A program made the translations under genes and the position numbers. From Eledone cirrhosa (lineage: Eukaryota): 64,000 bases of DNA. Shown piece by piece: positions 28,012-48,900 of this stretch (positions are counted from its first letter, which is position 1; every line of letters starts with the position of its first letter). The stretch covers positions 60,946,001 through 61,010,000 of the forward strand of contig OZ024742.1 of the NCBI GenBank assembly GCA_964016885.1. Reading direction: 5' to 3'. Below the pieces are notes generated by a model. The model was given only the letters and a program-made list of their open reading frames with translations, ran no database searches and had not been told where the DNA came from.

Positions 28012-29062
28012 TTTCGTTTCTGAATTTATTTAGCAAGATTCTCTATCTGAAATCGTGTGTTGAAACCGATATTGTTATACTTTGGGAGGGTCATGTTTCC
28101 AATAAGAAACACACGCACCTATGCTTCACTTCAATTTATTATAATAAATTTATAAATTTAGGAATTTATAAATTTCTGGTTGGTTGGATGGTTCCACAAC
28201 CAGATAGTTGTTTATACATTGTCAAAGTTCTTTCGTCACACATTCTGTGACCTCTTCAGTGGCTGGGGATTCTTTTCTTTGTTTTTGTGTCTCTCCTTTG
28301 TTCTGTCCTACGCCATTTTGTTTCTGTGTGTGTGTTGTGTGCTCAGTCTGCGCATGCGCCACATCCGGTTGTCTGTGTGTGTTTATATTTGTTTATTTAT
28401 TTGTTTATTTACATGTTACCGGTTGGTTGTTTGTTCTATGTACGTGTGTGTTTTCATTTTGTCCTTAATTGTAAGTTGTGATGTTGCTGTTCCACTCATA
28501 TTTTCACAGAAACAAAATGGCGTAGGACAGAACAAAGGAGAGACACAAAAACAAAGAAAAGAATCCCCAGTCACTGAAGAGGTCACAGAATGTGTGATGA
28601 AAGAATTTTGACAATATATAAACAACTATCTGGTTGTGGAACCAACCAACCAACCAGAAATTTATAAATTTATCATAATAAATTGAAGTGAAAGCAACTG
28701 GTGCGTGTGTTTCTTATTGGCAACATGACCCTCCCAAAGTATAACAATATATATATATATATATATATATATATATATATATATATATATATAAATATAT
28801 ATATATATTTATATATATATATACACACACGCACACACACATATATATATATATATATATATTGTTATACTTTGGGAGGGTCATGTTGCCAATAAGAAAC
28901 ACACGCACCAGTTGCTTTCACTTCAATTTATTATATATTTATAAATTTATAAATTTACAAATCTACAAACTTATAAATTTCTGGTTGGTTGGTTGGTTCC
29001 ACAACCAGATAGTTATTTATATATAGTCATAGTCCTTTCGTCACACACTCTGTGACCTCTTC
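28012..29062. mobile_element. Three alternating-orientation copies of a hammerhead-bearing 3' end (-, +, -)
   Basis: About 28012-28330 (-), 28505-28750 (+), 28861-29062 (-). HHR gtca-CTGAAGA-ggtcac...gtga(c/t)-GAAA...tgac at 28570-28612 and in mirror copies. The tail is also found at about 33715-33790. Confidence 0.8.
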
Positions 29063-32000
29063 GAGAATCTAATTGTAATACGTGACGTATTCTATTCTAT
29101 AGCGATTAGGTCTTCAAAATGTTTATTATAAACATACAGAATATTTTCGAATATTCTATGTCTATCTTCACATATATATCGCTATTTCAGAGCATTTAAT
29201 CCAATTTCTAATTTCTGCCGGACCGGCAACCGCTCTTTCAAACCAGTTCCTGTACACAGCTAAGTATTCTATAAGTCTCTAGCTGTGTCATTCTCGATAA
29301 AAGCACTGGATATGTAATCCTGAAGATTTCTAATAAGAGTGAAACGCGTAGGTTACTTCCCTTGCTTTTATCGAGAATCTAATTGTAATACGTGACGTAT
29401 TCTATTCTATAGCGATTAGGTCTTCAAAATGTTTATTATAAACATACAGAATATTTTCGAATATTCTATGTCTATCTTCACATATATATCGCTATTTCAG
29501 AGCATTTAATCCAATTTCTAATTTCTGCCGGACCGGCAACCGCTCTTTCAAACCAGTTCCTGTACACAGCTAAGTATTCTATAAGTCTCTAGCTGTGTCA
29601 TTCTCGATAAAAGCACTGGATATGTAATCCTGAAGATTTGTAATAATAATGAAACGCGTAGGTTACTTCCCTTGCTTTTATCGAGAATCTAATTGTAATA
29701 CGTGACGTATTCTATTCTATAGCGATTAGGTCTTCAAAATGTTTATTATAAACATACAGAATATTTTCGAATATTCTATGTCTATCTTCACATATATATC
29801 GCTATTTCAGAGCATTTAATCCAATTTCTAATTTCTGCCGGACCGGCAACCGCTCTTTCAAACCAGTTCCTGTACACAGCTAAGTATTCTATAAGTCTCT
29901 AGCTGTGTCATTCTCGATAAAAGCACTGGATATGTAATCCTGAAGATTTCTAATAAGAATGAAACGCGTAGGTTACTTCCCTTGCTTTTATCGAGAATCT
30001 AATTGTAATACGTGACGTATTCTATTCTATAGCGATTAGGTCTTCAAAATGTTTATTATAAACATACAGAATATTTTCGAATATTCTATGTCTATCTTCA
30101 CATATATATCGCTATTTCAGAGCATTTAATCCAATTTCTAATTTCTGCCGGACCGGCAACCGCTCTTTCAAACCAGTTCCTGTACACAGCTAAGTATTCT
30201 ATAAGTCTCTAGCTGTGTCATTCTCGATAAAAGCACTGGATATGTAATCCTGAAGATTTCTAATAAGAGTGAAACGCGTAGGTTACTTCCCTTGCTTTTA
30301 TCGAGAATCTAATTGTAATACGTGACGTATTCTATTCTATAGCGATTAGGTCTTCAAAATGTTTATTATAAACATACAGAATATTTTCGAATATTCTATG
30401 TCTATCTTCACATATATATCGCTATTTCAGAGCATTTAATCCAATTTCTAATTTCTGCCGGACCGGCAACCGCTCTTTCAAACCAGTTCCTGTACACAGC
30501 TAAGTATTCTATAAGTCTCTAGCTGTGTCATTCTCGATAAAAGCACTGGATATGTAATCCTGAAGATTTCTAATAAGAATGAAACGCGTAGGTTACTTCC
30601 CTTGCTTTTATCGAGAATCTAATTGTAATACGTGACGTATTCTATTCTATAGCGATTAGGTCTTCAAAATGTTTATTATAAACATACAGAATATTTTCGA
30701 ATATTCTATGTCTATATTCACATATATATCGCTATTTCAGAGCATTTAATCCAATTTCTAATTTCTGCCGGACCGGCAACCGCTCTTTCAAACCAGTTCC
30801 TGTACACAGCTAAGTATTCTATAAGTCTCTAGCTGTGTCATTCTCGATAAAAGCACTGGATATGTAATCCTGAAGATTTCTAATAAGAATGAAACGCGTA
30901 GGTTACTTCCCTTGCTTTTATCGAGAATCTAATTGTAATACGTGACGTATTCTATTCTATAGCAATTAGGTCTTCAAAATGTTTATTATAAACATACAGA
31001 ATATTTTCGAATATTCTATGTCTATCTTCACATATATATCGCTATTTCAGAGCATTTCATCCAATTTCTAATTTCTGCCGGACCGGCAACCGCTCTTTCA
31101 AACCAGTTCCTGTACACAGCTAAGTATTCTATAAGTCTCTAGCTGTGTCATTCTCGATAAAAGCACTGGATATGTAATCCTGAAGATTTCTAATAATAAT
31201 GAAACGCGTAGGTTACTTCCCTTGCTTTTATCGAGAATCTAATTGTAATACGTGACGTATTCTATTCTATAGCGATTAGGTCTTCAAAATGTTTATTATA
31301 AACATACAGAATATTTTCGAATATTCTATGTCTATCTTCACATATATATCGCTATTTCAGAGCATTTAATCCAATTTCTAATTTCTGCCGGACCGGCAAC
31401 CGCTCTTTCAAACCAGTTCCTGTACACAGCTAAGTATTCTATAAGTCTCTAGCTGTGTCATTCTCGATAAAAGCACTGGATATGTAATCCTGAAGATTTC
31501 TAATAAGAATGAAACGCGTAGGTTACTTCCCTTGCTTTTATCGAGAATCTAATTGTAATACGTGACGTATTCTATTCTATAGCGATTAGGTCTTCAAAAT
31601 GTTTATTATAAACATACAGAATATTTTCGAATATTCTATGTCTATCTTCACATATATATCGCTATTTCAGAGCATTTAATCCAATTTCTAATTTCTGCCG
31701 GACCGGCAACCGCTCTTTCAAACCAGTTCCTGTACACAGCTAAGTATTCTATAAGTCTCTAGCTGTGTCATTCTCGATAAAAGCACTGGATATGTAATCC
31801 TGAAGATTTCTAATAAGAATGAAATGCGTAGGTTACTTCCCTTGCTTTTATCGAGAATCTAATTGTAATACGTGACGTATTCTATTCTATAGCAATTAGG
31901 TCTTCAAAATGTTTATTATAAACATACAGAATATTTTCGAATATTCTATGTCTATCTTCACATATATATCGCTATTTCAGAGCATTTAATCCAATTTCTA

Positions 32001-32305
32001 ATTTCTGCCGGACCGGCAACCGCTCTTTCAAACCAGTTCCTGTACACAGCTAAGTATTCTATAAGTCTCTAGCTGTGTCATTCTCGATAAAAGCACTGGA
32101 TATGTAATCCTGAAGATTTCTAATAATAATGAAACGCGTAGGTTACTTCCCTTGCTTTTATCGAGAATCTAATTGTAATACGTGACGTATTCTATTCTAT
32201 AGCGATTAGGTCTTCAAAATGTTTATTATAAACATACAGAATATTTTCGAATATTCTATGTCTATCTTCACATATATATCGCTATTTCAGAGCATTTAAT
32301 CCAAT
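29061..32305 (+). repeat. 310-bp tandem array, 10 full units plus 145 bp, one hammerhead per unit (non-LTR retrozyme-like)
   Basis: tcgagaatct recurs at 29061, 29371, 29681 ... 32161 (exact 310-bp period); units are nearly identical; no ORF. Confidence 0.95.
29291..29377 (+). ncRNA. Type I hammerhead of the 310-bp unit (repeated every 310 bp, 10 copies)
   Basis: Stem I gtaatc/ggttac extended by the 15-bp ttctcgataaaagca/tgcttttatcgagaa; CTGAAGA 29320-29326; stem II ttct/aga(a/g); GAAA; palindromic ACGCGT; GUA cleavage after 29350. Confidence 0.9.
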
Positions 32306-32315
32306 ATATATATAT

Positions 32316-47819: not shown

Positions 47820-48040
47820 ACAGTGGTTAGTGTGTTGCACATATAATCATGATGTGGGTTCGATTTCTAGACCTGGTTGAGTGTTGTGATAATTAGAAAA
47901 ATACTTCGTTTTACGTACCCTAATATATTCAGCTGAAATGAGCACCAGCAGTAGCTGGGGTTTAACCCGGCGATGGACTGGCATATCTCAGTCGCTTTAT
48001 GTCACGAAAGCCATGAAGAGCACTGGTTTAATGAGTCTTA
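47820..48040 (+). mobile_element. tRNA-derived (CORE-like) SINE, decayed
   Basis: A-box-like agtggttag, B-box gggttcgatt, downstream aacccggcgatggactggcat. Confidence 0.55.
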
Positions 48041-48404
48041 CGAGTTGAGACAAAATTTAGACTTTAGACTAGTTAAGAAGAAAGACAAAGTGAGAGGATC
48101 TAGTTCATGATTATTTTCCTTCTGCGAAAACATTCGCAAATTATGCAAACACGCAAAAAACGCACAGCTGATTTTGGTGGTTTTCATCTCCACACAGTCA
48201 TCTCGCTTTCATCCCCTATTCCACCATTATAATAGGCAAAAAGACTTATTCATATACTTGTAACATGACGAGGAAGCTTAATCAAGCTATAACTTTTGAT
48301 CTAATTTTCATAAATAACACCACTCCCCACATTTAGGTGTGTGTATATATATAAATACACACACACACACACACACACACACACACTCATATATATATAT
48401 ATGA

Positions 48405-48900
48405 GTACGTGGCTCTGATGAACGCCAAACAGACTGTCTGCTTCTCTCCCTTCATTCGCCGAAAAGACTTAAGTGACATAGTCATTACTTTAAAACTGAT
48501 AGCGTATGGTCTTCTAAATGTTTTTAATTAAACATACGGTATAATACAAAATATACTATACATCGCTATTTCGGAGCATCAATCCTAATACACAATTTTT
48601 CCTGGACCGGCAATCACTCTGTATAATCAGCTACTGATTATTACTGGAATTCTATAAGAATCCAGCTTCTATAATTTTCGGCAAAAGCATGGGATTGTGT
48701 CTCTCTGATGAACGCCAACCAGCGTGAAACAGACTGTCAGCATCTCTCCCTTCTTTCGCAGAAAAATATAATGGGCATAGTCACTACTTTAAAACTGATA
48801 GCGTATGGTCTTCTAAATGTTTTTAATTAAACATACGGTATAATACCAAATATACTATACATACATTCATGTATTCATCGCTATTTCAGAGCACCAATCT
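48405..48900 (+). repeat. ~290-300-bp retrozyme-like repeat, ~1.7 tandem copies
   Basis: CTGATGA at 48415 and 48705; second HHR complete: acgc/gcgt stem II, GAAA, ACAG-a-CTGT, GUC; shares boxes with the 310- and 316-bp units. Confidence 0.85.

Follow-up and report, generated by a model that had tools for sequence, protein, structure and literature searches.

A 64,000-nucleotide stretch of the Eledone cirrhosa genome (contig OZ024742.1, positions 60,946,001 to 61,010,000; hereafter the window) carries three families of short tandem repeats, named A, B, and C, whose units each contain a hammerhead ribozyme motif. These families are likely non-autonomous retrozymes for which the enzyme of a Penelope-like element (PLE) carries out reverse transcription and insertion. 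The reverse transcriptases (RTs) of PLEs are the sister group of telomerase. The evidence that carries this assignment comes from the insertion ends, which fall at two sites flanking a conserved box, and from the distribution of the short tail that lies between these sites. With unit positions numbered from the predicted cleavage site, the three families are located in the window as follows.

29061..32305, + strand: family A retrozyme array, 10.5 units of 310 bp (99% matches), 5'-truncated at unit position 21; its 3' end, at position 165, is tail-bearing and runs into (TA)n
32280..32305, + strand: terminal tail of array A, unit positions 140-165, containing GCTATTTCAGAGC and lying between the end-points used genome-wide
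43596..43881, - strand: family B left arm, inverted, ending tail-bearing at unit position 170 in (TA)n
43890..44491, + strand: family B right arm, 1.9 units of 316 bp, ending tail-less at position 140 in (TA)n
48405..48900, + strand: family C copy, ~1.6 units, decayed, a single arm with a tail-bearing 3' end in (TA)n

Insertion ends and the one-tail rule

Genome-wide, the outer 3' ends of the insertions occur at two sites, either at an internal ATATAT run at unit position 139/140, or 26-35 nt further, just past GCTATTTCAGAGC. For family A, 49 of the 58 scored ends are located exactly at position 139 or 165, and for family B, 21 of 47 are located at position 140 and 22 at positions 164-175; family C exhibits the same two end sites. 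The resulting tail measures 26 nt in A, 26-35 nt in B, and ~30 nt in C. Nearly all outer ends run into (TA)n, and the 5' truncation is variable. Hallmarks reported for PLE insertions are an inverted 5'-truncated copy and a tail of 30-40 bp, often at one end (PMC8557442, PMC3846280), and a (TA)n bias has been linked to the CX2-5CXXC linker of these elements (PMC8557442). In vitro work on a lizard PLE describes the tail as the sequence between two RT start sites, with both target strands being nicked and extended and a protein dimer being predicted (PMC11167929). Because the end-points of A, B, and C flank GCTATTTCAGAGC, as the published PLE tail lies between the RT starts, this second box of the unit is the PLE tail.

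Head-to-head palindromes, whose inner junctions vary, are frequent among the insertions. A script examined 35 A and 26 B insertions, at the loci that match the window units best; the count leaves out three A insertions, that of the window included, which span two loci. Two scorable own arms are present in 23 of the A and 21 of the B insertions, and exactly one arm bears a tail in 23/23 and 20/21 of them, respectively, the remaining B insertion being short/short. The total amounts to 43/45 once locus L054, read by hand as short/short, is added. A sample taken in position order from contig C1 comprises 23 two-armed insertions, 17 of which are mixed and six of which have an end at neither site, as judged by eye; none of the 23 is tail/tail or short/short. 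Nine two-armed loci of a distant family, G, judged in the same way, divide into five mixed, one tail/tail, and three other. As a positive control, 14 inverted insertions of two young autonomous Neptune-type PLE families were fetched, and all 12 that could be scored, with both ends found, possess one tail and are located in (TA)n.

These ends also bear on whether the repeats might instead be satellite-like or similar to short interspersed nuclear elements (SINEs), spread by DNA recombination or by a long interspersed nuclear element (LINE), with the boxes acting as promoter elements. Tandem arrays, some with later block duplication, would suit such repeats, as would the TATAA contained in the fourth box, TTCTATAAG, and the LINE fragments of the window. 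However, the arrays are dispersed among many chromosomes, they have inverted arms, 3' ends that are fixed, and 5' ends that are random, they have neither a poly(A) end nor a tRNA-like head, their end pattern fits PLEs, and changes in their boxes are compensated in helices. The end statistics largely refute this explanation, which is scarcely credible. The narrower assignment to a tRNA-derived SINE is rejected as well: the window contains no tRNA gene, and the repeats have two alternative ends and inverted arms. The satellite and SINE readings, for which a preliminary description of this DNA, made from the sequence, had allowed, are rejected.

Relationship of the three families

All four boxes are found in one order in A (310 bp), B (316 bp, and also in its inverted arm), and C, as the preliminary description had reported for the three window loci. 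Local alignments score 96 (A-B), 100 (A-C), and 201 (B-C), whereas 300 dinucleotide shuffles per pair reach at most 28-30. The similarity therefore exceeds that of the shuffled controls by far, a comparison that had been proposed for the boxes. The initial unit lengths of 310 and 316 bp stand; that of the third family, given as ~290-300 bp, does not, the family C unit being ~316 bp elsewhere in the genome and the window copy being shortened and decayed. With blastn, A and C align over 342 nt at 68%, B and C over 309 nt at 71%, and A and B over 145 nt at 74%. Within the boxes, 51-59 of the 62 columns are identical across family pairs. Outside them, identical columns amount to 121/239, 143/240, and 172/251, that is 51-69% identity, and A, B, and C are therefore diverged homologues over the entire unit, the boxes being peaks of homology and not islands.

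The host genome of 3.0 Gb contains 28,027 exact copies of the tail box, against one for the reversed control, and 31,506 exact copies of the first box, against 22. Copies of A and B are 98-99% identical genome-wide and dispersed over many chromosomes, and C copies are ~90% identical. The single, structurally constrained superfamily of small mobile RNAs first proposed is retained, its qualification as old applying only to the split between families. The 33 loci taken in position order from the start of contig C1 form a continuum of A-, B-, and C-like subfamilies. Among the relatives, E is intermediate between B and C. F, with a 341 bp unit, resembles A and C beyond all 300 shuffles, and its similarity to B is not above shuffles (109/300 shuffles). 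G, with a 427 bp unit, has a predicted architecture similar to that of A, B, and C and is not alignable to them (scores of 21-26, given without a shuffle comparison). Two end-points and the P1-P2-P3 layout described below are observed both in G (loci L341-L365) and in F (loci L161-L210). No open reading frame (ORF) of at least 120 aa is found within the arrays. The families may already be catalogued in Repbase or Dfam.

Predicted hammerhead ribozymes

29320..29350, + strand: first type I hammerhead core of array A, with CUGAAGA, a U-U at the stem II base, GAAA, and a palindromic ACGCGU stem III; predicted cleavage after GUA at 29350, the hammerheads recurring each 310 bp up to 32110
44002 and 44318, + strand: family B right-arm hammerhead cores, with U3:A8

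A motif scan reports the type I hammerhead, core and stems I-III, in each unit. The ribozymes of the three families had been described as different: their sequences do vary, but all are variants of one type I hammerhead and not distinct ribozymes, and the distal stems quoted with them, which differ in sequence, are confirmed to keep pairing. The family B core, UUGAUAA, carries a U3:A8 swap, a covariant of the hammerhead core described in PMC3088659, and for its stem III, ACAU-GUC-AUGU with GUC as the cleavage site is the better reading. Position 3:8 across the fetched loci is C:G in 179 cases, U:A in 98, and mismatched in six (C:G or U:A in 277/283), these being variant-locus counts from overlapping loci that are not independent; such covariation supports selection on the hammerhead. 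A short palindromic stem III has been described as favouring dimeric cleavage (PMC4209133). The ribozyme and distal-stem regions fold with z-scores of -7.5 (A), -7.9 (B), and -1.7 (C). Rfam returns sub-threshold HH9 matches for family B only (E 0.0009-0.2), with no hammerhead match for A or C among the 150 of 154 matches listed.

An A variant of a related lineage (runs X1, X5, and X10, compared with window 29371-29990) exhibits hammerhead changes that improve pairing, from G-U to A-U in stem I and from U-U to A-U at the stem II base. The same variants are also present in A subfamilies of this genome.

Predicted RNA domain around the two start sites

29408..29540, + strand: predicted structured domain around the two start sites, one unit shown, limits approximate; P1, P2, P3, P4, and a possible long-range GGUCU/GGACC

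In the predicted fold, helix P1 (6-8 bp in A, B, C, E, and F) has the first half of the tail box as its 3' strand, the partner segment lying immediately upstream of the first box; in F, the changes compensate each other. Enclosed by P1 are the first box and two hairpins, namely P2, where a single U-A pair has become C-G in B/E, and P3, with the loops UUCG, GCAA, GCCA, and UUUA. The third box corresponds to hairpin P4, in which three of four pairs are changed on both sides between A/C/E and F, and which is broken in B. RNAalifold, to which no such pairing was given, joins the first box to the P4 loop by a long-range helix, whose strands are GGUCU/GGACC in A/C and GGCUU/GAGCC in F; 95.5% of cells pair, against 25-46% in slid controls, the covariation coming from a single branch and being inflated by relatedness, as the tool warns. 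This pairing is possibly a pseudoknot, or else an alternative fold, as the P4 stem can extend into the same bases. The family G pairing GUACGGCU/AGCCGUAC was considered as the long-range helix and dropped; a closer reading of the G loci identifies it as the P1 analogue. In B and C, the fourth box folds into a small hairpin. The predicted circles are stable (z -5.5, -6.0, and -4.7 for A, B, and C). The initial suggestion that the boxes are RT-recognition signals holds for the tail box, by its location between the two insertion end-points, while the other boxes appear to coincide with conserved helices around the start sites, which these models support in part.

Templates, arms, and junctions

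The insertion route that we propose starts with transcription of the array, from which the hammerheads would excise monomers that are then ligated to circles; family A would probably be excised as dimers, given the 2-bp palindromic stem III. This first step is drawn by analogy with other animal retrozymes only. A PLE protein dimer would then bind the structured domain around the tail (second step) and nick both strands of (TA)n, one cDNA starting just 5' of the tail and the other just 3' (third step). Each RT would travel an independent distance, often several laps, and the cDNA 3' ends would join via a few bases of microhomology to form the palindrome, where they may prime second-strand synthesis. 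From the nicking onwards, these steps are modelled on genomic scars and on the published lizard PLE work. A more specific scheme, in which an asymmetric PLE dimer sits on one pseudoknotted domain of a single circle, reverse-transcribes it by rolling circle on both sides of the tail, and yields cDNAs that prime each other's second strand, is put forward tentatively and we hold it to be possible, though doubtful.

The two arms of an insertion resemble each other. A substitution common to both arms is found at 9/22 B loci (null mean 1.9) and 5/23 A loci (null 0.24), the null consisting of 5000 re-pairings of arms, 0/5000 of which reach the observed value. In six long arrays, the locus haplotype is present in all units of both arms save a few singletons, with five haplotypes overall; such uniformity is consistent with lap after lap on a single monomer circle, or with a multimeric template derived from a uniform array. 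One arm can hold up to 24 units. Inner junctions overlap by at least 2 nt in 24 of the 33 spacer-free cases, against 18% expected, and 11 more junctions have spacers. The tail arm is the longer one in 23 insertions and the short arm in 20. Array A itself has an unrelated neighbouring arm.

28860..29060, - strand: family D, a hammerhead-bearing PLE-type family, inverted, its tail-less 3' end fused to the array A 5' end

This segment, 98.5% identical to another D copy, is probably the second arm of the array A insertion, the two having presumably been co-inserted. Family D as a whole, at window 27984-29060, represents the 3' end of another PLE, with its own palindrome and one 59-nt tail. The D endonuclease (EN) and RT are found in L105 and L371, and successive insertions are stacked in the same (TA)n. 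In L006, an A array is split by a ~900-bp insertion starting with CTAG on the strand read, probably a Helitron-like element.

Variants common to both arms and junction microhomology would also be accounted for if the same elements and PLE enzyme generated the inverted arm by fold-back or template switch onto the first cDNA, without a second RNA initiation; self-priming has been proposed for PLE palindromes (PMC3846280), and the tail-less end lies in the internal ATATAT run that could anneal to the target. A fold-back copy cannot, however, exceed the tail-bearing arm, and the tail-less arm is longer in 20/43 insertions, which argues against this route. Unrelated second arms also exist, namely the D arm of the window and, among the 16 junctions listed, six sense-outward partners and one antisense, and in vitro, RT starts at either site with RNA as the template (PMC11167929). 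Simple fold-back is rejected on the arm lengths and the unrelated arms, and this origin of the inverted arm is very unlikely.

Alternatively, the two subunits might use separate RNAs, one primed per site, the arms being alike via a dominant local subfamily or later conversion. Chimeric insertions speak for it, e.g., the D+A palindrome of the window, which still has one tail. Against it, private variants are present on both arms far above the re-paired controls, and locus-specific haplotypes occupy both arms though at least five A haplotypes coexist. We regard it as unlikely in general and compatible as a minority route; it overlaps the proposed route and differs from it only in the second and third steps.

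Several observations weigh against PLE-mediated insertion as laid out here. The end at 139/140 merges into the (TA)n target, and its exact position is uncertain by several bases. Exceptions to the one-tail rule are L038 and L054, both short/short, L125, which associates a B arm and a D arm that both bear a tail, and L349, from the distant family G, which is tail/tail. The minimum-energy folds of the three window hammerheads do not contain the complete active fold, and the window C copy folds weakly (z -1.7). BLAST overlaps may overstate the junction microhomology, and gene conversion between arms could also yield shared variants. Several arrays, that of the window included, hold variants recurring every 2-10 units, and in L108 a variant is confined to the two terminal part-units; a single monomer circle is therefore insufficient without later duplication or a multimeric template, and the periodic variants are best read as one or the other. 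Lastly, no autonomous PLE end homologous to A, B, or C is found in five Neptune-type families, N1-N5, and no member is joined to a PLE ORF in the 33-locus census. Since these five families lack a homologous end, the partner lies outside the families sampled, has died out as a sequence parent, or else recognises structure.

Penelope-like elements and other repeats

25187..27982, + strand: N1 copy, a young autonomous Neptune-type PLE, 5'-truncated, with RT, CX4CXXC linker, and GIY-YIG; U3:A8 hammerhead at 27810 and its own 64-nt tail; not homologous to A/B/C

N1 follows the same insertion rule as A, B, and C. It comprises at least 150 copies whose EN domains are 97-100% identical; the 775-aa frame is intact in many of them, and the 3' region measures ~1 kb. 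The predicted fold of N1 likewise clamps both start sites, within a single long-range helix covering the start codon. Young PLE families with intact 775-, 784-, and 796-aa frames co-occur with the retrozymes in the genome, and the intact frames carry the CX4CXXC linker, of a type tied to Neptune/Nematis and to (TA)n targeting (PMC8557442). Profile searches for the partner covered 887 kb of fetched loci, 50 GIY-YIG loci, and 12 more, in a genome that holds many more PLE families, and matched only nearby retrozyme copies or weak matches. N1, N2, N3, N4, N5, family D, and Penelope-type ends are all rejected as sequence partner, none being homologous; N1, N4, and N5 have only YYCTAAT/CCAAT-like words in common with A, B, and C at the end-points.

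Horizontal spread of the A unit, which is seen in runs of many organisms, was also considered and rejected. Runs X4, X5, and X10 contain one low-depth unit-length A contig each, and N1 traces in X5, X10, and X11 bear X1 variants; these signals are therefore read as trace DNA carry-over. No run recorded as RNA is among those listed, which speaks neither for nor against transcription.

Other repeats of the window include a fragment of the older Neptune-type family N2 (18211-21160), in which a U3:A8 hammerhead lies near 20935, as well as a Penelope-type EN (3022-3636) between inverted arms (1768-2379 / 3630-4248). More inverted-repeat elements, with arms 90-97% identical and several flanking (TA)n, are located at 21631-23365, 32316-33007, and 45062-45890, and are likely more PLE-type ends or nested insertions. 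A small palindrome at 6393-6583, whose family is also found in L124, contains a canonical type I hammerhead on each strand, at 6478 and 6498. Fetched flanks yielded, by chance, six or more further repeats with a hammerhead (L115, L110, L122, L095, L035, L065), one of them a ~500-bp tandem with a minimal core. The segments 7352-10611, 36307-39288, and 55085-63177 hold what we take, from their translations, to be decayed Helitron-like helicase and LINE fragments (RT/APE frames up to 676 aa).

Comparison with known elements

Non-LTR retrozymes, i.e., those devoid of long terminal repeats (LTRs), are defined in PMC7229834, which names PLEs as strong candidates for their mobilisation. As described there in coral, mussel, and axolotl, they resemble A, B, and C in having tandem units of 170-400 bp with one type I hammerhead each, GC below 50%, no ORF, no LTR, several families per genome, a stable predicted circle, and co-occurrence with PLEs; an axolotl family exhibits the U-U at the stem II base found in A. 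Expression, cleavage, and circles are shown in that work, whereas A, B, and C are described here from genomic sequence. A preprint (10.64898/2026.07.22.740005) concludes on the same mobilising partner, considering retrozymes as non-autonomous PLE derivatives from co-occurrence and distribution and from homology to the pseudo-LTR (pLTR) in vertebrates. Here, in contrast, the link is the insertion scar, and no homologous pLTR is found among the PLE ends sampled. The main text of PMC7229834 has 0 matches for 'inverted', 'tail', and 'microsatellite', that of the preprint none for 'tail', 'initiation', and 'secondary structure', and neither main text mentions retrozyme tails or inverted insertions. 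A literature search, its scope excluding supplements and most subscription journals, found no paper evidently reporting them. The plant LTR retrozymes, with a type III hammerhead in LTRs, a primer-binding site and polypurine tract, and a 4-bp target-site duplication, are rejected as a model, the present repeats having type I topology and tandem units.

The EN+ Neptune-type PLEs (PMC8557442, PMC3846280) and the anole Poseidon element PAc (PMC11167929) share with A, B, and C the inverted 5'-truncated arm, the (TA)n target, the optional 26-35 nt tail at one end, and the hammerhead upstream of two start sites. Unlike the EN+ PLEs, A, B, and C are devoid of any ORF and have many full laps per arm, and their one-tail rule is counted as near-strict. 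PAc has an AC-rich stem loop at its start sites, whereas those of A, B, and C lie in a predicted multi-helix domain. The Chlamys elements, e.g., MRC1 (PMC8557442), are likewise non-autonomous PLE passengers with multicopy head-to-tail insertions. As described, however, their 3' end generally looks like that of an autonomous family, and canonical hammerheads are mostly absent from Chlamys, whereas A, B, and C have no parent among the PLEs sampled and carry hammerhead motifs. The tandem type I hammerhead repeats having been published as non-LTR retrozymes and as non-autonomous PLE derivatives, A, B, and C are not the undescribed system that the preliminary description took them for. They join a known class as new members, and the genomic evidence on how the PLE machinery inserts them is unusually clear.

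Significance

The insertion route of animal retrozymes and the origin of the inverted ends and tails of PLEs are stated as open in PMC8557442, PMC11167929, and 10.64898/2026.07.22.740005. With thousands of young insertions, naturally occurring compensatory variants, and two end-points already mapped, the present families provide a substrate that is protein-free and 310 nt long. Together with intact Neptune-type ORFs in the same genome, they make twin initiation, rolling-circle copying, and the RNA recognition element testable in the existing in vitro format. If the asymmetric dimer scheme were true, P1-P2-P3, the tail, P4, and the kissing helix would represent the first defined RNA recognition element for a PLE RT, and the one-tail rule would be a general signature of PLE integration.

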